Of a stretch of 64,000 bases of DNA, positions 3,001 to 51,829 are shown piece after piece. The notes under the pieces were generated by a model. It searched no databases. It was not told the origin of the DNA and was given only the letters and a program-made list of their open reading frames with translations. Source of the stretch: Dictyostelium discoideum (Eukaryota); NCBI GenBank assembly GCA_000004695.1, contig CM000154.2, positions 4,896,001 to 4,960,000 on the forward strand. Reading direction: 5' to 3'. Every line of letters starts with the position of its first letter. Position 1 is the stretch's first letter. A program made the position numbers and the translations under genes.

Positions 3001-6000
3001 AGTACTTGATGTTTCAGATGATTGTTGTGATTGTTGTTGTTGTTGTTGTTGTGATTGTTGTGATTGTTGTTGTTGTTGTTGATTATTTAATAATACATTT
3101 AATGAGGATGATGATGATGATGATGAAGTTTGTACATTTGCGGCTAATGATAAATCTTTTAATAAATTTGAATTTGGTGTTGGTGGTGCATTTGATATTA
3201 CATTTGGATTATTTGATTGTGGATTATATGGTGTACCTTGTTGTTGTGGTAATGGTGGTTGTGATGATGATGATTGTTGGTTGTTAGTTTGATTTGAATA
3301 TGGTGTCATTGGAGTACCTGGTGTATTTTGAATACCTGCTATTCTAGAATTATTTGGTGTATTTGGTGTATTTGGTGTAGCTGATGAAGATAATAATGGG
3401 TTATCTCTTTTACCAAATATTTTAATATCAGATATTCTTGCAGATTTACATTCTTTAATGATTGAATTTGATTCATTCTTTATAACTTTAAATAGAATTT
3501 GACGATTTGTTTTATCTTTTTTTAAACGGAATGTAACCGAAGGTAAATGAGTATTATAAACATCTGGATCCTCTAAAATATGAACTGGTTTATATTGATC
3601 ATCAGTACCTGTATTCTTTTCAGATTCTAAAATATTTAAAGTTGCTAAAAATTCGAAATTCTCTAACATTGGTTGATTCTTTGATGATGATGATGTTGTG
3701 GAGGCAGATGATGATGATGATGTTAATTTTGGTTGTTGTTTACTCTTTTTATGACCTCTAATTTCAAATGAAACATATTGAGTTTGTAATAGATTAATTA
3801 ATGATTCGGTTAATGAAGTGATAACAATTCTCTTTTGATCGATAAAAGCAGAGATTGGTTGTGGTTCTGTTAAAAATGTATCTACTATTGTACCATTTTG
3901 ATTTGGGAAATTGAATTTAATGAAAACATCACTAAATTTATTTTCATCTATAAACTCTGAGAAACCTTCAAAACCAATGGTAATTTCTAAATTCTTGCCA
4001 AGTAATAATGATTTATTATTTGATGGATTCTCTAAATATAAACCACGTTCAGACTCTGTAATATCGGTAGATGATGATGAAACCAATAGATTTAAATAAC
4101 CTTTTTGATTACCATTCTCATCTAAAATGGGTACTGGTCTATTACTTTCTACCAAATATAATGTATTCTTTAGATAAACATGTGACACACCAATTAATGA
4201 ATCCTTTGTAAATGTGAATTGGAAAGGATCCTCTGGAAGCTCAGTATCCAATCTACCATCATTTTGATAAAGTTCCCTCATTAAATAAATTCTATCTACG
4301 AAATCTTGATCGGTGACTAATGTGCTCTCACCAGTCGACGAATCGGTTGCTTTAATAAGGATTTGAGTTTTTCTCCAATCGATTTCCGGCTCGATATTAT
4401 CAGAGATTTGATCAGGCTCTGGGAATACTGAATATAACTTTAAGGATAAATTGATCTTTTTATTCAAAGTGGAGGAGATGGCATTCGCTTCGTTCAATGA
4501 TAAAATGATGAAAGAGATCTTATTCAAAAGTTTAGATCTATGAACTTTTGATCTCCAACGTCTAAATGCGAGCAATGCCAATTTCTCACGTTGTTCCTTT
4601 ACTTCTGGGTCGCAATCATTCTCGAGTTGTAATCTAATTTGGTCATATAATGCTCTCATTTGTTTCTTATATTCTTGTTTATCATTGATATGTTTTGACA
4701 TTGCCAATGTACCTTGAATTGAAGCCAATTCATTCAAAGCGAAATCATAATCCATAATTTGATCGACTGGACTCTTTGTACTACTAACTATACCACCAGT
4801 AGTTTGATTTCTTTCTCTTGCAATTTTAATTGCTTCCTCTGGATTATTAAATCTAAAAATATGATTATTACCTAAAATTACTCTATTACCTGTTGTTAAA
4901 ATGGTTGGTTTATTAATTTCAACACCATTTACATAGATATATGATCTATCTAATTTCTTTTCACCATCATCATCATCATTATTATTTTCTTTTTCTTTTT
5001 CTGATTTTGGTTTTGATGGTGACTTTGATGATGTTGGTGTTGTTGATGATGAATTTTCTTTATTATTATTATTATTCATAAAATTATTTGATGGAGAAAT
5101 TATAACTTTTCCATTAATATTTTCAAAAATACAATGTTCTTTATGAATATTTAAACCATTTAAAATGATATCTTGAGGAATTTCAGAATCTGAACGACCA
5201 ATTCTAGTTTTACCTTCTTTAACATAATAGATTAAAGATTCAGACATTAGAGGATCCTCATTTAAATTAATAAGATGAGGAATTGAAGAGACCACTTTAA
5301 TTGCAACACCCATATCTTTTAGTGCAGCCATTCTATCCTCACGAATTGCTTCAGCCTCTGATAATTTCTCTTCCCATGATTTATTTAATTCAGCCATGAG
5401 TTTTTCATATTGTTCTATCTTTTCATTCAATGTAGAAACGGTTTCATCGTAATCGGAATTCATAAGTTTTGAATCGTTTGCATGATATTGACCACCTTGG
5501 TCCATCATTGCTCTTAATCTCTCCACTTCACCTTGCAACTCTCTAATAAGCTTGGACTGAGCATCTTCATTGACCACAGCGACAGTTTTGATCTTTTTAG
5601 CGGAATCTGCATAACGTAGTGTCGAGAGTGACTCTTCATAGTTTATATCTGCTGGCGATATTGCAGCAATCATAATTGTTTTAGAATTACCACCCAACGT
5701 TTCCTTGAGGAGATAAGTTAACACTGAATCACGATAAGGTACGAATACAGCCTTCTTTGATGTTGAATTCTCTGCCAATGCAGAGATAACCTTACCCAAT
5801 GTGGAGAGGGATTTATTGATATTTGCACCCTCCTTCAAACGTACACCAGTTGCACCAGTGCTATTGGCCCTCTCTGAACCTGCCAAATCCACCAAACTAA
5901 TCTTACTAACTCTATCAATTGCCGTACCTCTTGTCTTATCGATTTTACTCTGTGTGAATACAATTGTAAACACTGCATGACTACGACTTGATGTTGCATT

Positions 6001-6125
6001 CATATTTGTTGATGCTACAGTTCTTGCTTTACTACCTTCATCCATAAGCATATCAATTTCTGAAAAACTTTTAACTGCTAATCTAAAAAAAACAATTTAT
6101 TTAATATTCATCATCATCATCATCA

Positions 6126-6159
<34 letters not shown>

Positions 6160-6451
6160 AGTCATCATCATCATTATCATAGAGAAAAACTAAACTTACT
6201 TTGATAAATCTTCAACATATGGACCAGTTGAAGGATTATTTCTAACTTTTAAACCACCTGTTTTATTATTATTTGGATTTAATAAATCTTTAACTTTTTC
6301 ATTATAAATTTCCATATAACTAACTGTTGTTTTATAAATTGTTTGTTCATTTGAATTTGATGGTGTTGATTGAATTCTTTGAAATAATTCTTCACAAATT
6401 AATGGAATAATACCTTTTTCTTCACCATAACCCATCATAGAATAACTATAT

Positions 6452-6523
<72 letters not shown>

Positions 6524-6924
6524 TAAAAAAAATAAAAAAAATGATTAGATTTTAATTTTTTTATTATTATTTTTTTTTTTTTTTTTTTTTTAACAAACCT
6601 TTTACCAGAACCAGTTTGACCATATGCAAAGATTGAACAATTGAAACCATCCCATGCATTTTTTAAAACTTCTTTACCTAAATCATTATATACTGTTGAT
6701 TGCGATGCAAAATGTGGATCATTTGAATCATATGACCAATAACTATAATCGAATGAAAATGATTTCTCATCATCTGCTGTTGGTGCAGCCAAAGGATTGG
6801 CACGAAGTGCAGATGGTCTGGTCAAAATTGTAGATTTATTATTCATTTGAACAATTAATTCTGCATTTCTTTCCTTTTCACGTGAATTAAAGGGACGTAC
6901 CCTAACTGCTACTTGTACATTCAT
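37..6924 (-). CDS. kif1: Kinesin-3 family motor, Unc104/KIF1A orthologue, 2205 aa. It has an N-terminal motor domain, an FHA domain, long coiled coils and a C-terminal PH domain. Exons: complement(6599..6924, 6200..6445, 37..6082).
   Basis: Exon 1 begins [13 protein letters not shown] and contains the P-loop GQTGSGK, followed by a GTAAAAGgtttgt donor. Exon 2 ([12 protein letters not shown]...YVEDLSK) and exon 3 ([22 protein letters not shown]...[12 protein letters not shown]) join in frame. Total CDS is 6618 nt = 2205 codons plus stop, which matches the known DdUnc104 length. FHA region: [14 protein letters not shown]...[13 protein letters not shown] region: [22 protein letters not shown]. 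Stop at 37..39. Confidence 0.9.
6451..6535. repeat. (ATTT)n microsatellite within kif1 intron 1.
   Basis: tatttatttatttattt repeated about 20 times. Confidence 0.9.
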
Positions 6925-9457: not shown

Positions 9458-9639
9458 TCTTTTTTTTTTTTTTTTTTTTTTTAATTTTTTATTATTATAA
9501 TTATTATTGTTATTATTACAACAAATTTATTTTTAAAATAAATAAATAAATAAATAAATAAATAAAAAATAAATAAATAAATAAAAAAATAAACAGATAA
9601 ATAAATAAAACAAGAATAAATTAATTAAAACAGTATAAG

Positions 9640-9681
<42 letters not shown>

Positions 9682-16000: not shown

Positions 16001-18885
16001 ATATTCATTATATGACATTTATGTACCAAAAGCATTATATGAAAGTGAAATTGCAAAATTAAAGAATCAAATTACAACAATTGATTATGGTTTAGTTGGT
16101 ACTACTACTACTACCACTGCTACTGCTAGTGGTAGTGGTGGAGGTAATTCTAAAGATATTAATAAAAAGAAAAAAGATAAAGAAAGAATTCAATCAACAA
16201 TTGAAAAACTTCAAAAAGAATTGGCAATTCAAACTTTAAATCATCAAAAAGTTTTAGAACATATTCAATCATTAAAAGATAAATTCTTTGAATTTTCATT
16301 AAATTCACCTGTAAATCAAACAATTAATTCAACAACAACAACAACAACAACTTCAACAACAACTTCAACAACAACAACAACAACAACCCCTACAACAAAA
16401 GATATGTTACAAAATGGTAAAAAAGAAGGTATTATTAAATTTTTACAATATTGTATATTTCCAAGAGCAACATTTACACCAGCAGATGCAATTTATTCAG
16501 CTAAATTTGTTCAAATTTTACATAGTATTAGTACACCAAATTTCTCAACATTAAATTATTTATTAGATCTTTGTCAATCGATTACTTTTATGATTTATTC
16601 AAGTACAGAGAATGAAGCAAATAGATTTGGTAGATTTTTAAATGAATCATTAAGTATCCTAACCAAATGGAAATCATCAGAATCACTATACGATAAGGAA
16701 TGTGCAAAACTTTTAAAAACTTTAGCATTAAGTTATGATAATTTCGTTAGATTCTTTCATCGTTGTCATAAAACAATCTCTGAATCATTTTCAAATTGTT
16801 TAGAGAATGATGAATATATGGTCATTAGAAATGCGCTATTGGCATTAACTAAATTGGTTCATGTTTTCCCAGCTCATAAATCTTCTTATGAAAATATTGA
16901 AAATTTAGTATTAAAGTTAAAGAAAAGAGATGAATTGAAAACATTGGCAATTCGTTATCATTCATTATTAGAAAAAGAAAAACCAAGAATGATTGATGAT
17001 ATCATTAAACCAACAAAACCAAAAGCTAATCTAAAAGATTCAAAATCGCCAACTACAACTTCTTCAACTCAAACTACAACAACAACTTCTTCAAAAGATA
17101 GTGGCACTACTACTACAACTTCTTCATCAACTCCAACTACAACTTCTTCATCAAATAGAGATTCAATTAAAGATGCTGATATGATTGATATTAATGATGA
17201 AAATAATAATAATAATAACAAATCAAAAGAAAAAGAAAAGGAAAGAGAACGTGAAAAAGAAAGAGAAAAAGAAAAGGAAAGAGAAAAGGAAAGAGAAAGA
17301 GAACGTGAAAAAGAAAGAGAAAAAGAAAAAGAAAAGGAAAGAGAACGTGAAAGAGAGAGAGAACGTGAGAGAGAAAAAGAAAGAGATAGAGAACGTGAAA
17401 AAGAACGTGAACGTGAAAGAGAACGTGAACGTGAGAGAGAACGTGAACGTGAAAGAGAAAAAGAAAAAGAAAAAGAAAAGGAAAGAGAACGTGAACGTGA
17501 GAGAGAAAGAGAACGTGAGCGTGAACGTGAAAGAGAGCGTGAACGTGAACGTGAAAAAGAAAAAGAAAGAGATAGAGAACAACGTGAAAAAGAAAGAGAA
17601 AGAGAACAACGTGAAAAAGAAAGAGATAGAAGTGATCGTAATTCCGATAAAAATAATAATAATGATGGTGGTGGTAGTGGTAGTTCAAGAAGTGATAAAT
17701 CCTCTTCAAAAGATAGTGGTAGTAAAAAAGATCAACAAACTCCACGTAAAGAAATTGAAAAATCAGAATCAAGAGAGAATATTCGTGATTCACGTTCAAA
17801 TGATAACAATCAATCATTATCATCCTCTCGTGAAATTAGAGAAAGAGATAAAGAATTAAAAGAAAAAGAGCAACGTGAAAAGGAACAACGTGATAAAGAT
17901 CGTGAAAATAGGGAAAGAGATAATAGAGATGTTAGAGATTCACGTAATGATCAAAGAGGTAATCAAGAAAGAGATGGTGGTGAACCTCAACAACGTAGAC
18001 AACAACAACAACAGCAACAAGAAAGAGATAGAAACGATATTAGGAATCAAGATAATAACAATAATGACTCTCAACAACAACAACAACAACAACAACGTAG
18101 ACAACAAGACAATGATAGAAGAGATAGAGGTAATCAAGATAATATAAATAATAGAGATAATAATAGCAACAATAGAAATGATAATAGAGAAAGACAACCT
18201 AATCAAGATAATAGAGATAACAACAATAATAATAGTAATAGAAATGAAAGAAATGATAGAAATGATAGTAGTAGAGAAAGACAGGATAATAGAAATGAAA
18301 GAAATGATAGTAGAGAAAGACAAGACACTAGAGATAATCGTAAAGATCAACAAAGAGATAATGATAAATCAAATCAAGTGCAAAGGAATCGTGATTCTCA
18401 ACCATCGTCACGTAATTCTTCACCACCCCATAACCAACCACAACAACATCAATCACAGCAACAACAACCACAACAACTTTCTCCACCAATTCCACAAACC
18501 GATGAAGAGAAATTTAAAAATGCAAAGAAAAAGAGAGAAGAGAAATTTGAAAGTAAACAAAAAAATAATAATGAAATCGATCAAGAATCACCTCCAAATA
18601 ATAATAATAATAGTAATCAATCATCAAATTCAAATCCATCTTCAAATCAAAGTAGTAGATCAAATAGTAAGGATAGAAGTGGTGGTCAACAAACTCCTCG
18701 TGATAATCAAGAAAGACAAAGTGGTGAAAATAATAATAATAACAACAATAATAATAATAACACTAGAGATGACCATGATAATAAAGATAAATTAAAAGAA
18801 ATGAGAGATAATATTCGTAAAAAACAAGAAAGTAATAATAATCAAAATAATAATCAAAATAATAATAATAATAATAATAATAATC

Positions 18886-18942
<57 letters not shown>

Positions 18943-22029: not shown

Positions 22030-25000
22030 TTAATTTAATTGTTTTAATTTGCTTTGTATTTGTTCTTTAAACTTTTTGGAATTTTTATTTTTGATAAAAA
22101 TGTATACAACCGAGATAACAATAATTGCCACAAAACACACTGAACCAATTACAATTCCTGCGATTTTACTGGCTGATAATCCATTTGATTTCGAACAAAT
22201 TGAATTCTCTCCTGATGCTGATTCGCTATCTAATAAAACAAAGAAATCTGGATCAATAATTACTTTATTTTTAAAATGTGGAATTTTAATTCCAATAAAA
22301 GTTTGAGTAGAGTGAGATGTTGATTCAGCAATTGTATTTTGGAATTCATCTAACAATGTATTTTCAATACCAACAATATTACCATCTACTACAGCCCTTT
22401 TAATGAATCTACCATACATTGAATGATCTTGAACTTGAAGTTTAATGTAGTTAGAGTTGTCACCATTTGTAGTATCACCAAATTGTTTTAATGAACAAAA
22501 ATCATCACTTTCATCTGTTGATAATATCGAAGCAAACATTACCAATTCGAGATTATTTAAAGCTGAAGAGAATACATAATTTTCAATTTCAATGGTAAAT
22601 TTGACTGATGATGGATTCATTTGGAGCTCTTGACCTGCAAATGTTATATTTTTGCTTGAATTAAACCATTGAATAATTGTTGTTATATTTGTGGTTTTAA
22701 TATCGTTACCATTTTGAGAAACTATTGATGTATTGTATCTACCAGTTGTTAAATCTATATCTTCAAATACCCATTTATCAAAAGGGAATGTTTTAATAAC
22801 TTCACCTTTAAAATCTAATTCTCTAATAGAAACTAAAGTTACTAATGATTTAAATAAAAATTCTGTTGAGTTTGTTTCTTGTCCACCACCACCGCCTGTA
22901 ATAGGAATTTCAACTGTTGGTTGTGAAGTATTTGTTTGTGGTGTTGGGATAATAATAATTTTTGAAGTACAATCAACTCCGTACCAAGGAGAGTAACAAA
23001 TGCATCCAAACCCACTTTGACAATAACCTTTGTTTTTTCCTCCACATTCTGGATTTCCTAAACATTTTTGAGGTGGATTTGTTGGTAATGGTGATATAGT
23101 TGGTTGTAAAGTTGGTTGTAAAGTTGGTTCTGGTGTATATGTTGGACCAGAATAATTAAAATTATAAACTATTGGATTAATTAAAAATTCATTTGATTTA
23201 ATGTTAATTTGATTGGAATCAAGTAATAATAATTTAAAAGGAATATCGATTAATGGTACCTCTGTTAATTTAATGAAACTTGAATAGGTTTTAGTTATTG
23301 TTTTTAAATTTATGTCACTACCATTCGAAATATAAATAATCGCTGTATCAACTGTACGAAAGTTTTTACCAAAAATAAATAGAGTTGAATCTTTGTTTGT
23401 AAATTCTGAAACTGATGTTATTATTGGTATATTAAATGAAAAATCTGTAGAAACAAACCAATCTTGTTGTAATGGATTTAAATCCTTAATGTCTTTTGAA
23501 GAGAATCCACTATAGGTTCCTCTATTATTAATAAAGCCATAAACAGATACTAAGAAACCATCAGGATATCCAAAACCTACTGGTACTTCTATTGTACACG
23601 AAAAGGTTATTGTAGTTGAATTAGTAATTGTTGGTGTTGCTCGGCATTGTTCCATTGCAAGTCGTTGTGGAACTAAATAAACTATTGGATTCTGTCCTTG
23701 TTTAAAACCGCTTTCTAAATCTTGTGCTTGAAAAGTGAATGTTATTGATCTATCTAAAGAGCCTACATCCATTGAAGATCTCGAGGTTTTAAAGGAAATT
23801 AAATTTGGAGGAGAACTATCCAATTCACCAGTACAATAATAATTAATACTAAAGGGTGATGAATCATTAATGAAATGAATAAATGGATTACGAGTTGACT
23901 CAAACGATTGAGTGTTTTCATAATACTCTAAAGTGAAATATTTAACATATGTATTATTGTTACCATATGTATCGAATAAACTTGCTTGAGTTATTAAATA
24001 ATCTTGAGTGATACAATTACTACTCCCAATACCAAACTCCAATGGTATTATAATTTTGTAATCACCAATAATTTTATCACCACTTCCTTCTATTAAATTT
24101 GACATGTTTATTGTAATGTTGTAGAATGAAGAATCTAAAAGTCCTTTAACAATTAAAAAGCCATCTCTGAAACCGTTTATTTCATCTTGAATTGTAAATA
24201 ACCATCCATTATGTTGTTTTATGATTTTGGTTACAATTGGTCCATAAATATCAACCTTAATTGAAGTTGCTCTTAATTGATATTCATTGGATAAATAATT
24301 ACTATCAATTAAGTTTGTATTATCAAGTACCAATGCATAACTTATATTTCCTGGTAGTGTATTTGCAGGTACTTTAAAGTTTACTCTAAATCTATTGGTT
24401 GTTTGGTCCCATACTGCAAATTTATAATTTGGATTTAAAATAGTAAATATACTATTTTCAAATCTAATATCGTTTAAAGATTTTTCATCAGTTAAATAAA
24501 AACCAATTGACAAGTCTTTATAGTCTTCAATATTATTAAATGTAAAAAACATTATATTATCAACTGATTGGTCAGTTATATCAATGTCATTATATAAAAA
24601 TGATACCTGAACTAAATCATTTAAATAATTATAATCTATTAAAATAATATTAAAAAAATTATTAGTAATGAATTATAGTAGTTTTAAAAGTGTATTATTA
24701 ATACAATTTTCTTACTTTTTAAATTAATACTTGGATATGTAAGTTTTGAAATGTTATTACCAATCTGGTAGAGATAATCACCAAATCCATATGTAACTGG
24801 GTAATCTAGGTTGCCTTCTATTTTTATTGAATTTTCGGTGATAGCATTGCTTATTTCAACAAGCTCAAATTTTATTTCTGTAAGATACTCCCAAATACCA
24901 TCAGAAGCGGTACCAGAAACAAGCATACCATTATCATGAACAGTATTCTTTGAGTTCATAATTTTTAAATACGAAACTGAAGATAAATTTGGTGAGCCGA

Positions 25001-25873
25001 TACTTTTAATTTCAATTCTGTTTAAAAACTTTAGATTTCCGATATAACTAGATGTAAAAGATTGGATTTCAAATCTTCCAACATCGGAATTAGGTAATGT
25101 AATAAATGGTTCGAAATCTCCCCTCATTTTAGTAATACATCTAGGCATACATATAGTAAGAATATTCAAAGGTGAAATGGATATTAAATTAATTGGTAAA
25201 GAGAATCCAAATTTGACCATTTCATTATTTCCTCCAATAAAGCCAAATGGAAAATCGGTAATAGTAAATGTTTGTTTATATTCTAATTGAAATGGATTAA
25301 AATCAAATTTAAATTCTGTTCCATTATACTCAGATGTAACCATTGCCATACCAACAGTTGAATTATCTTTGATAGAAGTTAACTTTGAGTTTGGTGTTTG
25401 TAATCTTGGGCTTTCTATTTTTTTAATTTGAAATATTTATATATATATATCAATTTTAATATTAATATATTTCAATTTTTTTTTTAAATATTTTAAGATT
25501 AAAAAATTAAATCAAATTTACCTGTTATATTAACAAAAAAATTGGAATATTCTTTAAATGATGGTTGTGTTTCATTTTGTCCATACAATGAAAAGTTCAT
25601 ACCATTAGCCATAATTGGTAAACAAGTTGCAATAAATGTTAAATTATTTGGTTTACCTAAAATTGGTCTTGGTGTTGAATAATATCCTAAAGTACCCAAT
25701 CTATACACCGGATTTAGAAGATTTGATTTGATTCTAAATGATAAAAGTGAACCAAATACATTTGAATATAAAACAAAATTTCCTGAAGGTGGATAAAGTT
25801 TTAAATCATAAATTTCATTCGTTACAATATTTCCTCCTTTTAAATTAAAATTAAAAATTATTATTATTATTAT

Positions 25874-27511: not shown

Positions 27512-30500
27512 TTAATTTAATTGTTTTAATTTGCTTTGTATTTGTTGTTTAAACTTTTTGGATTTTTCATTTTTGATAAAAACATAAACAATAGAAATAA
27601 TAACAACTGCCACAAAACACACTGAACCAATTACAATTCCTGCAATTTTACTGGCTGATAATTCATTTGATTTTGAACAAATTGAATTCTCTCCTGATGC
27701 TGATTCGCTATCTAATAAAACAAAGAAATCTGGATCAATAATCACTTTATTTTTAAAATGTGGAATTTTAATTCCAATAAAAGTTTGAGTAGAGTGAGAT
27801 GTTGATTCAGCAATTGTATTTTGGAATTCATCTAACAATGTATTTTCAATACCAACAATATTGTCATCGACTACAGCCCTTTTAATGAATCTACCATACA
27901 TTGAATGATCTTGAACTTGAAGTTTAATGTAGTTAGAGTTGTCACCATTTGTAGTATCACCAAATTGTTTTAATGAACAAAAATCATCACTTTCATCTGT
28001 TGATAATATCGAAGCAAACATTACCAATTCTAGATTATTTAAAGCAGAGGAGAATACATAATTTTCAATTTCAATGGTAAATTTGACTGATGATGGATTC
28101 ATTTGGAGCTCTTGACCTGCAAATGTTATATTTTTGCTTGAATTAAACCATTGAATAATTGTTGTTATATTTGTGGTTTTAATGTCGTTACCATTTTGAG
28201 AAACTATTGATGTATTGTATCTACCAGTTGTTAAATCAATTTCATCAAATACCCATTTATCAAAAGGGAATGTTTTAATAACTTCACCTTTAAAACCTAA
28301 TTCTCTTATTGAAACTAAAGTTACCAATGATTTAAATAAAAATTCTGTTGAGTTTGTTTCTTGTCCACCACCACCACCTGGTATTGGAATTTCAACTGTT
28401 GGTCCTGAAGTATTTGTTTGTGGTGTTGGGATAATAATAATTTTTGAAGTACAATCAATTCCATACCAAGGAGAGTAACAAATGCATCCAAACCCACTTT
28501 GACAATAACCTTTGTTTTTTCCTCCACATTCTGGATTTCCTAAACATTTTTGAGGTGGATTTGTTGGTAATGGTGATATAGTTGGTTGTAAAGTTGGTTG
28601 TAAAGTTGGTTCTGGTGTATATGTTGGACCAGAATAATTAAAATTATAAACTATTGGATTAATTAAAAATTCATTTGATTTAATGTTAATTTGATTGGAA
28701 TCAAGTAATAATAATTTAAAAGGAATATCGATTAATGGTACCTCTGTTAATTTAATGAAACTTGAATAGGTTTTAGTTATTGTTTTTAAATTTATGTCAC
28801 TACCATTCGAAATATAAATAATCGCTGTATCAACTGTACGAAAGTTTTTACCAAAAATAAATAGAGTTGAATCTTTGTTTGTAAATTCTGAAACTGATGT
28901 TATTATTGGTATATTAAATGAAAAATCTGTAGAAACAAACCAATCTTGTTGTAATGGATTTAAATCCTTAATGTCTTTTGAAGAGAATCCACTATAGGTT
29001 CCTCTATTATTAATAAAGCCATAAACAGATATTAAGAAACCTTCAGGATATCCAAAACCTACTGGTACTTCTATTGTGCATGAAAAGGTTATAGTGGTCG
29101 TATTGGTAATTGTTGGTGTTGCTTGACATTGTTCCATTGCAAGTCGTTGTGGAACTAAATAAACTATTGGATTCTGTCCTTGTTTAAAACCGCTTTCTAA
29201 ATCTTGTGCTTGAAAAGTGAATGTTATTGATCTATCTAAAGAGCCTACATCCATTGAAGATCTCGAAGTTTTAAAGAATATTAAATTTGGAGGAGAACTA
29301 TCCAATTCGCCATTACAATAATAATTAAATATTAAGGGTGATGAATCATTAATGAAATGAATAAATGGATTACTAGTTGAATCAAAGAATTGAGAGTCCT
29401 CATAAAATTCTTGAACGAAATGTTTAACATATGTATTATTGTTACCATATGTATCGAATAAACTTGCTTGAGTTATTAAATAATCTTGAGTGATACAATT
29501 ACTAATTCCAATACCAAACTCCAATGGTATTATAATTTTGTAATCACCAATAATTTTATCACCACTTCCTTCTATTAAATTTGACATGCTTATTGTAATG
29601 TTGTAGAATGAAGAATCTAAAAGTCCTTTAACAATTAAAAAGCCATCTCTGAAACCGTTCACTTCATCTTGGATTGTATATACCCAACCATTCTGTTGTT
29701 TTATGATTTTGGTTACAATTGGTCCATAAATATCAACCTTAATTGAAGTTGCTCTTAATTGATATTCATTGGATAAATAATTACTATCAATTAAGTTTGT
29801 ATTATCAAGTACCAATGCATAACTTATATTTCCTGGTAGTGTATTTGCAGGTACTTTAAAGTTTACTCTAAATCTATTGGTTGTTTGGTCCCATACTGCA
29901 AATTTATAATTTGGATTTAAAATAGTAAATATACTATTTTCAAATCTAATATCTTTTAAAGATTTTTCATCAGTTAAATAAAAACCAATTGACAAATCTT
30001 TATAGTCTTCAATATTATTAAATGTAAAAAACATTATATTATCAACTGATTGGTCAGTGATATCAATGTCATTATATAAAAATGATACCTGAACTAAATC
30101 ATTTAAATAATTATAATCTATTAAAATAATATTAAAAAAATTATTAGAAATGAATTACAGTGGTTTTTTATGTGTAAAATTAATAGAACTTTCTTACTTT
30201 TTAAATTAATACTTGGATATGTAAGTTTTGAAAATTCATTACCAATTTGATAGACCGTGTCACCAAATTCATATGTACTTCGAGTATCTTTGGTGCCTAC
30301 AATTTTTATTGTATTTTTTATGCTAGCACTACTTAATTCAACAAAATCAAATTTTATTTCTGTAACAAACTCCCAAAAACCTTCAGAAGCGGTACCAGAA
30401 ACAAGCATACCATTATCCAAAACAATATACTTTGTTTCTTTAATTTCTAAAAATGAAACTGAAGATAAATTTGGTGAAACTGTACTTTTAATTCCAATTC

Positions 30501-31362
30501 GGTTTAAAAACTTTAGATTCCCGATATAAATTGATGTAAAATATTGGATTTCAAGTTTTCCAACATCGGTGTCGGGTAATATAATAAATGGTTCGAAATC
30601 CCCTCTCATTTTATGAGTACATCTTGGCATACATAAGTTTAAGATATTCAAAGGTGAAATTGACATTAAATCAGCTGGTAAAGAGAATCCAAATTTGACC
30701 ATTTCATTATTTCCTCCAATAAAGCCAAATGGAAAATCGGTAATAGTAAATGTTTGTTTATATTCTAATTGAAATGGATTAAAATCAAATTTAAATTCTG
30801 TTCCATTATACTCAGATGTAACCATTGCCATACCAACAGTTGAATTATCTTTGATAGAAGTTAACTTTGAGTTTGGTGTTTGTAATCTTGGGCTTTCTAT
30901 TTTTTTAATTTGAAATATTTACATATATATATATCAATTTTAATATTAATATATTTCGATTTTTTTTTTAAATATTTTAAGATTAAAAAAATTAAATCAA
31001 ATTTACCTGTTATATTAACAAAAAAATTGAAAAATTCTTTAAATGATGGTTGTGTTTCATTTTGTCCATATAATGAAAAGTCCATACCATTAGCCTTAAT
31101 TGGTAAACAGGTTGCAATAAATGTTAAATTATTTGGTTTACCTAAAATTGGTCTTGGTGTTGAATAATATCCTAAAGTACCCAACCTAAATACTGGATTT
31201 TGAAGATTTGATTTGATTCTAAACGATAAAAGTGAACTAAGTATATTTGAATATAAAACAAATTGTCCTAAAGGTGGATAAAGTTTTAAATCATAAATTT
31301 CATTCGTTACAATATTTCCTCCTTTTAAATTAAAATTAAAAATTTGTTAATAAATTATTAAT

Positions 31363-35619: not shown

Positions 35620-35941
35620 TTAAATTGCAGTAGTTCCATCACAGGGACATACTTTTTTATGATTTTGACCAATAGAAGCAGCTCTACTAATTATTCCACA
35701 TGCTACACGCTCACCTAAAATTTTATCGCTTTCACTATTTACAATATTTTTATTATTATTATTATTATTTAGATCTTCAATGGGAGAATATTTTGAATCT
35801 TGAGAATGTAATACAATTGAACGACCAATTAAATCCCAAAAATCATATTTATCTGATAAAACTCTAAACTCTGCTTTTCCATCTTGCTTAACATCTGATG
35901 TCCCAATAATTTTATTAAGAATTTCTTTACATTTATTTATA

Positions 35942-36027
<86 letters not shown>

Positions 36028-36934: not shown

Positions 36935-37079
36935 ACCTATTTTGGTAATTAAAAAAAAAAAAAAAAAAAAAACAAAAGATATTAAAAAAAAAAAAAGTAT
37001 GGATAAATTAGTATATAATATAATCTATTTTGTTGTTTTTTTTTTTTATTTTCTTTTCTTTTTTTTTTTTTTTAAAGCA

Positions 37080-37495
37080 ATGTTTGATGAAGCTTGTGTT
37101 GATCAACTTATATTTTTTAAAATCATTTTTTTTTAAGCAATGTTTCTAAACTTTATCATCATCTGCCTGAGATTCCATCACTTCATCAATTTTATCGCCA
37201 GTGATTGAACCAGGTGGAGGTAGTGGCTTTACACACCTACCAATATCTCCATTCTCAATGTTTGGAAAGAATACTTTCTATTTTTAATAATGGTATTAGA
37301 ATTTAATGAATAAAAAGTAGTGTACAGTTTATATTTTTTAATTATTCTTATAAAACTTACGATAATTTCGGTAACATCATTATAAAATGAAGCTTGGTCA
37401 ATGTTATTAAACACTTGTATATTATTGATTGAATTCATTTTGTAATGACTAAATAGGCAAAATATAAGTTGATCAACACAAGCTTCATCAAACAT
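37080..37495. repeat. Perfect 35-bp inverted repeat with arms at 37080..37114 and 37461..37495, separated by 346 bp.
   Basis: The plus arm atgtttgatgaagcttgtgttgatcaacttatatt is the reverse complement of aatataagttgatcaacacaagcttcatcaaacat. One arm lies in the coding exon and the other 32 nt past the stop codon of the DNase II-like gene. Confidence 0.85.
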
Positions 37496-39712
37496 CACTG
37501 AAATAGAATTACTGGTACCAATTGGAGTGATAGTACAAGGGGTATTGGTACTTGATGGTGAAAATTCAAATTTAAAATTATTTGGAGTTTGAGTCTGCTC
37601 TAAATAAACTCTATTTATATTACCACTAAGTTGGACTATTTTTTCAGTAGCTAAAGAAGAGAAATAATTATTCTTCAATACTTGTGAAACAGTGATAACA
37701 AGATTTGGATTGGAGGAAATTATCATAACAGGTTCTGAGTGTATGTCTTTTTGACTAGGAGTAACAATAAGATTTATATTTGAAATGATATTAAATTTAG
37801 CCGATGATTCATATGGACATTCGGGTGACTGTAGACATATGTGTACTTTATCTTTTACACTTGGGAAAACATCAATTGAAATGTCCTCAGTTTTATAGCC
37901 TACTGTATCAGGTTGGACAAGGAGTGGAGCATTCGTGGTTTTATAGTTTGATTGTTTTGGTTCAATAACTCTTTTTGGAAGTGGGTTTAGTGTTTGTGGT
38001 ATTAAAATTTCAAATCCCATTGGATTATCTAGATTTTGAGCGGCAAATTGATTCATTATCCAAGAAAAGTCTATTTCAGTTCCTATCGTTGATTGTGGGA
38101 CACCAAGTTTTGCAATATTATAGGTTATATCTTTTCTTATCCATGTTACATGTCTTTCCATATAATCAACTAAATATCCAATACCATCCATGCAATAAGC
38201 TCCTCCTCCTCTTGATTCTAATTATGAAGTATATCGTATCAAATGGTATATAATAATTAATTAGTTTTAATTATAGTAAAAATAATAATAAAAATAAAAT
38301 ATAATTAAAATAAAAATAAAAATAAAAATAAAAATAATTAATTATGATTAAAATAATATTATTTTTATCTTACCTTGACCTCTTTGCCAATTTAGATCAC
38401 CTAAACAAAAGGTTTTTTGTTGACCATCATCACTGGTACCATACATTAACTTTGAATGATCTTTTGAGGAACTTCTTTGTGGATTTACATCTATGAATGG
38501 ATAATTGAGTCTTAATGCTATTGAGAAACTTGTACCAGAAACTACATTATTAGCAAATCCCTTTATTGTATTTGATGTCATTGTTTGAGACATCCATTTC
38601 GAAATATTTTTGTAATATTTACCAATATATTGCCATAATAATTCAATGTTATTCATTTGAGCAAAGTTTTTTGAAGATGGTTCGGCAATAATTCCTTTCT
38701 TTTGTGGGAGTGAAGTTTGAACAAAATATTCACCAAAGGAATATTTATTTACATGATAATAATGAGAAGATTTGAAGTTTGCATCTGATGAGAATTCAAA
38801 ATTTTCAGAAATATGACCAGCCTGGAAAATAAATAAAAAAAAAGTTGTAAAATTTGAGTGAGTATTTATTATCACAATAAAATAAACAATAATAAAAATA
38901 ATTATACATACCAATTTAGCCCATTGTAAAATTTTAATTTTTCTAGAGAGAGTTGAACCTACAAAAAAATTTTTCTTAATAATTTCATCGATTTCTGAAA
39001 AATATTTCTTTTTCTTTAAATCATCATCTGTTACTGTATCTAATTTTGTTTCGTCTACATCATTGATACCTGTTAGACTTGTTGCGAGTAATTTGCTTAA
39101 CATTTTACCTTTGTCGAATTTATGGTTATTTATTGCTTTAATTGCAGGGTTAGTATATATCAAATATTTTGGAATAATATCTAATTCATTTGGTTTCAAT
39201 GTAATACAAATTGAATGTTGTAAATAACTATCTTCAGAACTATGTAAAAAGAAATCATCAATTTCTTGAGGTGTGTAGGGGATACTATGAATTACGTGAA
39301 TACCACCATGTTCATTCCAAATAAAAAACCCTTTTGCATGTGCACTCCCTTTACCGTCATCAAAAGCATTATTGTAAGAAATACTTGAAAATATATTACC
39401 GTTGGCTTGACCGAATGTTTGAGTAATTGGAGATACCTGGTCTTTAACTCTCATATTATATTTACTTAATTCAAGTATTTTTTCATTTTTGTTCTTTAAA
39501 TTGCTATCTGTATAAAAAGATGAACCACTACCTTTATCTCCAGGTTTATTAAAATGTTCATAAATCCACCAATCAACATAATTTTCAGCGGGTTTTAAGC
39601 TTGGATTTGATGATTTTGCATAAATATCATTGTATAAACATCTCGGAACTTGTTGACATTTAATTATTGAAAATAAAATAAATAATAAAAATATTTTAAT
39701 CAAATTTTTCAT
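37146..39712 (-). CDS. DNase II (acid deoxyribonuclease) family protein with a roughly 330-aa C-terminal extension of unknown function. 4 exons: complement(38912..39712, 38374..38821, 37361..38217, 37146..37277), about 745 aa.
   Basis: Signal peptide MKNLIKIFLLFILFSIIKCQQ. The first HxK motif is GSAHAKGFFIW and the second is KDHSKLMYG. Then ...CLGDLNWQRGQG|ESRGGGAYC spans a gtaaga intron, and this junction mirrors the human DNASE2 C-terminus ([20 protein letters not shown]). The 90-nt in-frame intron 38822..38911 (gtatgt...ccag) is read through in the ORF track as the segment VCIIIFIIVYF. Two further GTAAGT/...TAG introns complete the model. Stop codon at 37146..37148. Confidence 0.6.
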
Positions 39713-40260: not shown

Positions 40261-48594
<8,334 letters not shown>

Positions 48595-51700: not shown

Positions 51701-51709
51701 ATAAAATTT

Positions 51710-51782
51710 CGCCCAACGGGGGGCTCGAACCCCCGACCACCAGATTAAGAGTCTGGCGCTCTACCGACTGAGCTAGCCGGGC
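51710..51782 (-). tRNA. tRNA-Lys (anticodon CUU), 73 nt.
   Basis: Minus-strand sequence gcccggctagctcagtcggtagagcgccagactCTTaatctggtggtcgggggttcgagccccccgttgggcg is a canonical cloverleaf with intact A and B boxes, followed by T-runs (aaattttattaattttt) acting as a Pol III terminator. Confidence 0.9.
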
Positions 51783-51829
51783 ACTTTGGTAAAAAAAATT
51801 TAATTAAGAAACAAAACATTTTAAAAGAT

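Follow-up and report, generated by a model that had tools for sequence, protein, structure and literature searches.

A perfect inverted copy of an exon segment in the 3′ untranslated region of a Dictyostelium discoideum DNase II-like gene, probably acquired by templated insertion

[quoted passage not shown] We consider it likely, with a probability of roughly 0.75, that this inverted repeat is a lineage-specific templated inverted insertion, in which the exon segment was copied into the gene's own 3′UTR by template switching during replication or repair. The AX4 repeat is a new example of an already known type of mutation, in which a single replication or repair error leaves a transcript with a perfect antisense copy of part of its own coding sequence, here with the direction of change established by comparison with relatives. 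A 37-bp intramolecular double-stranded RNA, which is proposed raw material for new hairpin RNAs and miRNAs, would in this way appear in one step, in an organism endowed with a working RNAi pathway and with miRNAs of fast turnover. The analysis covered the whole 64-kb stretch of DNA presented above, hereafter called the window.

A 37-bp inverted repeat links exon 3 and the 3′UTR of the same gene

The gene that carries the repeat lies on the minus strand and encodes a secreted DNase II-like protein. Its exons (39712-38912, 38821-38374, 38217-37361, and 37277-37146) yield a spliced product of 745 aa that is 100% identical to AX4 DDB_G0291033, which confirms the gene model of the first-pass annotation, with an intron at 37278-37360 and one arm of the repeat in a coding exon. 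The protein starts with a signal-like segment, matches the Pfam domain DNase_II (PF03265) over residues 41-296 (E = 8e-31), and ends with a long Cys-rich C-terminal extension found only in dictyostelid relatives. A literature search found no papers on DDB_G0291033. The main features of the locus, in window coordinates and in the order of the mRNA, are:

37146-39712, minus strand: DDB_G0291033 (signal peptide, DNase II domain, and Cys-rich C-terminal extension)
37459-37495, minus strand: coding arm and putative source of the copy, in exon 3; encodes M658-F669 (MFDEACVDQLIF) plus the first base of the next codon
37278-37360, minus strand: last intron (83 nt, GT..AG), located between the arms; the spliced model is 100% identical to the known protein
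37146-37148, minus strand: stop codon TAG of DDB_G0291033
37135-37145, minus strand: stop-proximal copy of a direct repeat, AAGCAATGTTT on the plus strand and AAACATTGCTT in the mRNA, equivalent to AACATTTTTT in orthologs
37117-37134, minus strand: A/T-rich filler of 18 nt, TTAAAATCA and then T9 on the plus strand, between the 3′UTR arm and the stop-proximal repeat
37080-37116, minus strand: 3′UTR arm, perfect inverted copy of the coding arm, 29 nt past the stop codon
37075-37085, minus strand: distal copy of the direct repeat, in which ATGTTT (37080-37085) doubles as the end of the inverted-repeat arm, a 6-bp junction microhomology
37045-37050, minus strand: sole canonical AATAAA from the stop codon to 36900, 29 nt beyond the 3′UTR arm

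The two arms are reverse complements of each other at 37 of 37 positions (37080-37116 versus 37459-37495). The first-pass annotation had reported a perfect repeat of 35 bp, and its two 35-mers (37080-37114 and 37461-37495) are indeed exact reverse complements; this real repeat was understated, the match running 2 bp further on the loop side. Of the accompanying figures, the GC content of the 35-mer is 29% rather than 34%, and the second arm is correctly placed in the 3′UTR but begins, at its full 37-bp length, 29 nt past the stop codon and not 32. The arms are separated by a spacer of 342 nt, reduced to 259 nt once the 83-nt intron is spliced out, in good agreement with the loop of about 260 nt originally claimed; this loop contains the last 75 codons, the TAG stop, and 29 nt of 3′UTR (plus the last intron before splicing). 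The ends of the repeat are sharp, with no similarity in the 20 nt past either of them.

A scan of the whole window identified this pair as its sole complex (mixed-base) inverted repeat longer than 21 bp, followed by (GAT)n runs (21 bp at most) and one 17-mer. Chance had been considered a very unlikely origin from the outset, and both of our estimates agree: a composition model predicts 4.4e-10 perfect inverted repeats of at least 37 bp in 64 kb, and the 35-mer was recovered in 0 of 100 dinucleotide-preserving shuffles of the window, even with 3 mismatches allowed. A chance origin is therefore ruled out by the shuffles and the composition model. Neither the window nor ~94 kb of related loci contains further copies of the arms. 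The 37-bp pair was missed by a generic repeat tool, the output of which was swamped by poly-A/poly-T pairings of the adjoining intergenic DNA.

The residues encoded by the coding arm (658-669) lie within the motif FH(E/P)xC(V/I)DQLxFCL, conserved in all 19 aligned members of the family. Residue 660, within FHExCVDQL, is Asp in AX4 DDB_G0291033 (GAT codon at 37487-37489, in the coding arm) and in one of two tandem copies of a related species (copy a of locus L005, see below; L005:2749-2751), His in 17 of the 19 aligned family members, and Leu in the remaining member; the 3′UTR copy has AX4's base. We initially regarded this Asp codon as unique to AX4, an idea dropped given the GAT of L005 copy a. 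A plus-strand gene making use of the arm was also rejected, the only candidates there being a low-complexity 90-aa ORF and a micro-ORF of 18 codons.

The only AATAAA of the region is located beyond the 3′UTR arm; co-transcription of the arms is therefore likely, and, judging from the position of this signal, both are probably present in one mRNA. A weak AATATA variant occurs inside the 3′UTR arm, at 37114. A literature search on polyadenylation in Dictyostelium returned nothing useful.

The 3′UTR arm in other assemblies and in relatives

Syntenic loci were retrieved by exact-protein look-up from several recent assemblies, and the order of genes is kept at the locus (a TIG-domain gene, the DNase II-like gene, a copper-chaperone/SOD-like gene, and PAPS synthase). 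De novo Nanopore plus Illumina assemblies have been produced for AX2-214 and the diverged tropical isolates CR116C and OT3A, labelled D. discoideum, as well as for the possible cryptic species M4B and S6B and for D. citrinum (Holland et al. 2025, PMC12745789). One locus, L001, comes from an independent de novo assembly of that project (GCA_054883475.1). Aligned with the window over 10.6 kb, it shows 1 substitution and 7 indels and is identical to AX4 in both arms and at every junction. Being near-identical over 10.6 kb, L001 therefore represents the same strain lineage as the window, assembled independently, and is most likely AX2-214. The first-pass annotation had envisaged that the repeat might be missing from other assemblies; it is present in this one. 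The AX2 and AX3/AX4 lines are separate derivatives of the wild isolate NC4; the allele therefore most likely dates back at least to NC4, and it has so far been seen only in NC4-derived strains (AX4 and AX2).

Ten other copies of the gene family, from five other genomes, retain the coding arm or its protein motif and are devoid of the 3′UTR arm. Half of them are syntenic, namely those of L002, L003, the two tandem copies in L005 (D. cf. discoideum), and L006 (D. citrinum), and the other family members compared are those of L004, L007, and L008. The 37-nt coding arm is kept with 1-2 mismatches in L002, L003, L004, L005 copy a, and L007. L002 and L003, ~87-88% identical to AX4 in DDB_G0291033, differ from it once in the coding arm (CAT for GAT) and lack the 3′UTR arm. 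The same absence characterizes both tandem genes of L005, in which the coding arm of copy a has 1 mismatch and GAT, the paralog DDB_G0267616 (L004), in which it differs at 2 of 37 nt, D. citrinum, the family member in L007, and two D. firmibasis genes in L008. No complex perfect inverted repeat of at least 18 bp was detected within 2 kb in L002-L006. The closest of these comparison genomes are ~12-13% diverged in DDB_G0291033, and a search for wild Dictyostelium contigs in JGI metagenomes gave no matches. With the coding arm kept in relatives and the 3′UTR arm absent from them, the direction of copying was therefore from coding sequence to 3′UTR; the coding arm is ancestral and the 3′UTR arm was gained in the AX4/AX2 lineage. 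At the GAT/CAT difference, the 3′UTR copy agrees with its own gene (GAT) and not with most relatives (CAT).

The DNase II-like family is expanding and diverging fast, with 77-80% protein identity among isolates all labelled D. discoideum. D. cf. discoideum has two DNase II-like genes in tandem (L005:468-3099 and 4001-6515), AX4, L002, L003, and D. citrinum have one, and in D. firmibasis (L008) at least three follow one another.

In most relatives, the 3′UTR contains a conserved, GC-richer block 40-75 nt past the stop codon. It is ATCACCCGATATATAATCTATATCC in L002, which is close to the consensus, and variants occur in L003, in both copies of L005, and in L004 and L007; the consensus has the core TAATCTAT..CC. 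D. firmibasis has a different block. The positions are:

L002:6620-6644, L003:6654-6678, L005:3150-3174 and 6585-6609, L004:5181-5203, and L007 ~9620-9645: GC-richer 3′UTR block of the relatives

This block is absent from the AX4 window between 36571 and 37145, and the inverted copy lies at the corresponding position. Compared with shuffled sequences, the block shows no excess complementarity to the coding arm or any part of the final 700 nt of the gene that it belongs to (z between -1.9 and +0.8), and the pairing of the orthologous block with the 3′UTR arm in a MAFFT alignment (17 of 30 positions) is at noise level. We accordingly rejected the perfecting of an older imperfect repeat (a Ripley-type quasi-palindrome correction): the orthologous blocks are without complementarity to the coding sequence, and the AX4 repeat therefore arose de novo, with no older imperfect stem as its precursor. 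The reference strain thus has an atypical allele of DDB_G0291033, with an inserted 3′UTR block and without the one common to most relatives, and this could affect comparisons of expression between strains. Apart from that effect, the repeat is an ordinary mutational footprint. Further downstream, past the poly(A) signal, an intergenic block (36996-37033, ATAGATTATAT..ACTAATTTATCCATAC in minus sense) is common to AX4, L002, and L005, amid A/T-rich DNA that is unalignable between the three.

Structure of the junctions

Read in mRNA sense, the 3′ end of the gene comprises TAG, AAACATTGCTT, A9, TGATTTTAA, the inverted copy AAAATATAAGTTGATCAACACAAGCTTCATC, a second AAACATTGCTT, T, A15, and further sequence. 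The 11-bp direct repeat AAGCAATGTTT, noted in the first-pass annotation at 37075 and 37135, is found at both positions and has no other copy in the window; when the adjoining homopolymer is counted, it becomes a direct duplication of ~20 bp that is interrupted by a single 1-nt indel. In L002 and L003, the aligned counterpart of the first AAACATTGCTT is AACATTTTTT, located right after the stop region. The second opens with AAACAT, the last 6 nt of the inverted copy, and continues with TGCTT and an A-run, which is 3′UTR sequence and not that of the coding flank. No template for the filler was found in the window, where TTAAAATCATTTT occurs only once. The loop-side junction is embedded in A/T-rich sequence, orthologs having GATATATAA at that place, and ATATAA may have provided microhomology there, to judge from the bases present. 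The insert is, in sum, a patchwork of an inverted exon 3 copy, a direct re-copy of ~20 nt of the 3′UTR start, a 6-bp microhomology, and the homopolymer of the outer junction. A retroposed cDNA fragment was discarded as its source: there is no correctly oriented 3′ poly(A), and the sequence adjoining the arm does not continue as mRNA.

Probable origin by template switching

In the mechanism that we propose, the 3′ end of a DNA strand at a replication fork or a resected break would have left the 3′UTR template, paired by microhomology with the strand of the same polarity at the coding arm, ~380 bp away, and copied 37 nt from it. The strand would then have returned to the 3′UTR start via the 6-bp microhomology AAACAT/ATGTTT and re-copied AAACATTGCTT and the A-run, a step that would yield the direct duplication of ~20 bp. 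The sharp ends of the repeat, the absence of the 3′UTR arm in relatives, and the direct repeat sharing 6 bp with the arm together support a template-switch footprint, in line with the small inverted insertion or template switch suggested at first reading. One switch and return fits the inverted copy but not the direct duplication of 11-20 bp or the filler of 9-18 nt. This duplication and the filler, for which no template is known, therefore call for a further step, such as an extra switch, a homopolymer slip, or end joining, so that a multi-step event, MMBIR-like or end joining with templated synthesis, is needed.

Templated insertions also form at repaired double-strand breaks, through snap-back synthesis in microhomology-mediated or polymerase-theta-type end joining and through MMBIR/FoSTeS. 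Like them, the AX4 insert is a patchwork of inverted and direct copies of nearby sequence with microhomology at a junction, and some of the original sequence may have been lost. Unlike in typical snap-back synthesis, the AX4 template is further from the junction.

The repeat shares the main attributes of the four-point template switch (Löytynoja & Goldman 2017, PMC5453318): the derived segment exactly matches, as its reverse complement, ancestral sequence nearby, its ends are sharp, a junction shows microhomology, and a hairpin-forming repeat is made in one step. Among the event types of that model, 3-2-1-4 and 1-4-3-2 are those that make inverted repeats (PMC5453318), and the AX4 geometry agrees with them. 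The polarity of the change is given by the lack of the copy in L002, L003, both genes of L005, L006, L004, L007, and L008. Source and copy are also local to each other, on the same chromosome arm with a 342-bp spacer, a distance that is longer than in typical published 'short-range' events. Unlike a single template switch (PMC5453318), the AX4 locus has the additional 11-20-bp duplication and filler, indicative of a more complex event. Human-chimpanzee data contain no events with a return point behind the departure point (PMC5453318), which is what the direct duplication implies here. Template switching can generate RNA hairpins in one step, candidate miRNAs among them (PMC8794818, PMC10710096). 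At the AX4 locus, the source is coding and the target is the 3′UTR of the same gene, so that the stem would lie inside an mRNA instead of an intergenic hairpin.

A predicted stem in the mRNA and its possible function

Folding predictions for the spliced 3′ 448 nt contain the full 37-bp stem in both the minimum-free-energy and the centroid structures. The predicted energy is -117.8 kcal/mol, compared with -72.0 ± 5.8 kcal/mol for shuffled sequences (z = -7.9), none of 100 shuffles being as stable. The stem has a mean pair probability of 0.98, whether the transcript is spliced or unspliced, and the arms alone are predicted to form a duplex of -54.8 kcal/mol. The double-stranded stem that the first-pass annotation had postulated in the mature mRNA, with a folding prediction as the way to check it, is hence borne out at the level of prediction. 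As modeled, this long-range 37-bp mRNA stem can form as a by-product of the insertion.

Whether the stem has become useful is a separate question. The first-pass annotation had proposed a regulatory hairpin or a source of siRNAs, and such a cis-regulatory element could be recognized by the RNAi machinery (DrnA, DrnB, and RbdB) or control stability or translation, with siRNAs silencing DDB_G0291033, possibly with RrpC-dependent 5′ spreading, and perhaps also paralogs that differ by 2 nt. We consider this unlikely. The stem is predicted to be very stable (duplex energy of -54.8 kcal/mol, pair probability of 0.98, z = -7.9) and the only AATAAA sits past the 3′UTR arm, but the repeat is missing at every related locus outside the NC4 lineage. 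In D. discoideum, hairpin RNAs give rise to siRNAs with RrpC- and DrnB-dependent 5′ spreading (Wiegand & Hammann 2013, PMC3661229), and long near-perfect hairpins of Amoebozoa are regarded as young miRNAs (PMC11014262), which makes a regulatory side effect conceivable; nevertheless, the known D. discoideum miRNAs are intergenic or intronic, the repeat has no match in Rfam even at E = 1, and neither arm occurs in the miRNA supplements of Liao 2018 and Edelbroek 2024, which leaves the early suggestion without support. The arm of the paralog DDB_G0267616, only 2 of 37 nt different, would make it a conceivable additional target. Translating ribosomes would open the coding arm. The usual Dicer substrates also differ from this stem, which is internal, has no free helix ends, and encloses a large loop of 259 nt. 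The stem is probably a young, neutral or slightly deleterious side effect of the insertion and not an evolved regulatory element, its neutrality being judged from non-conservation alone.

The locus can be compared with two systems in which sense and antisense copies of a gene segment coexist. In the inverted-duplication model, plant miRNA genes are born from their target genes. Like these and like the young miRNAs of Amoebozoa (PMC11014262), the AX4 repeat is a perfect fold-back with full complementarity to a gene and near complementarity to its paralogs; unlike in those cases, its arms are inside the target mRNA itself, 259-342 nt apart, are not known to yield small RNAs, and do not constitute a separate transcription unit. 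As in the hairpin RNAi constructs used in D. discoideum (PMC3661229), sense and antisense copies of a gene segment would be found in one RNA, transcription being deduced here, but those constructs have hundreds of bp and short loops, whereas the AX4 stem has 37 bp and belongs to an endogenous mRNA. A bolder and still less probable proposal is that the template switch made the mRNA self-targeting, the stem being diced into 21-nt siRNAs that, with RrpC-dependent 5′ spreading, silence DDB_G0291033 and its 2-mismatch paralogs; if true, this would capture the birth of a proto-miRNA/siRNA locus in Amoebozoa. In a weaker variant, exchange between the arms may feed changes from the unconstrained 3′UTR copy into the conserved protein motif; the coding arm has Asp where most family members have His.

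Other explanations of the repeat

A lineage-specific templated insertion has to be weighed against an old inverted repeat, lost in other lineages and kept perfect here by concerted evolution, that is, by gene conversion or template switching between its arms. Template switching between the arms of inverted repeats is known to homogenise them (PMC8604942), and GAT (Asp) is common to both arms at a codon where most family members have His. We nonetheless hold this scenario to be very improbable: the repeat would have to have been lost independently in the paralogs and in, at a minimum, the OT3A/CR116C, cf. discoideum, and D. citrinum lineages, the flanking direct repeat and its junction microhomology have survived unaltered in an A/T-rich 3′UTR that evolves fast, and orthologous 3′UTRs have another conserved block there, without complementarity to the coding sequence.

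Even harder to sustain is the remnant of a MITE- or foldback-type mobile element, in which the arms would be the terminal inverted repeats and the 11-bp repeat the target-site duplication. The 11-bp direct repeat does flank a 49-bp insert, but it flanks one arm and not the pair; one of the 'terminal repeats' would be a conserved coding segment of the host gene, the arms bound the end of an exon, an intron, and a stop codon instead of an element body, and the window and ~94 kb of related loci are free of other copies. The AX4 reference is an old Sanger assembly of an A/T-rich genome, for which a chimeric fold-back, as an assembly or sequencing artefact, is conceivable a priori; it can practically be dismissed since the independent long-read plus short-read assembly L001 has the identical structure and differs from the window by homopolymer-length indels.

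Other features of the window

Besides DDB_G0291033, the window contains two 840-aa ORFs (22030-24552 and 27512-30034, both on the minus strand) with exact matches to each other, the longest of 35 bp, always 5482 bp apart, a pattern that indicates a tandem gene duplication of ~5.5 kb. Two shorter ORFs (24684-25349 and 30121-30831) are separated by an offset near, and not equal to, that of the 840-aa pair. The only Rfam/ARAGORN match in the window is a tRNA-Lys(CTT) gene (51709-51783, minus strand). Long (AAT)n/(ATT)n tracts (35933-36027, 42407-42537, and 18833-18941) correspond to poly-Asn in the copper-chaperone-like gene and others; they cross-match in BLAST and dominate repeat searches.
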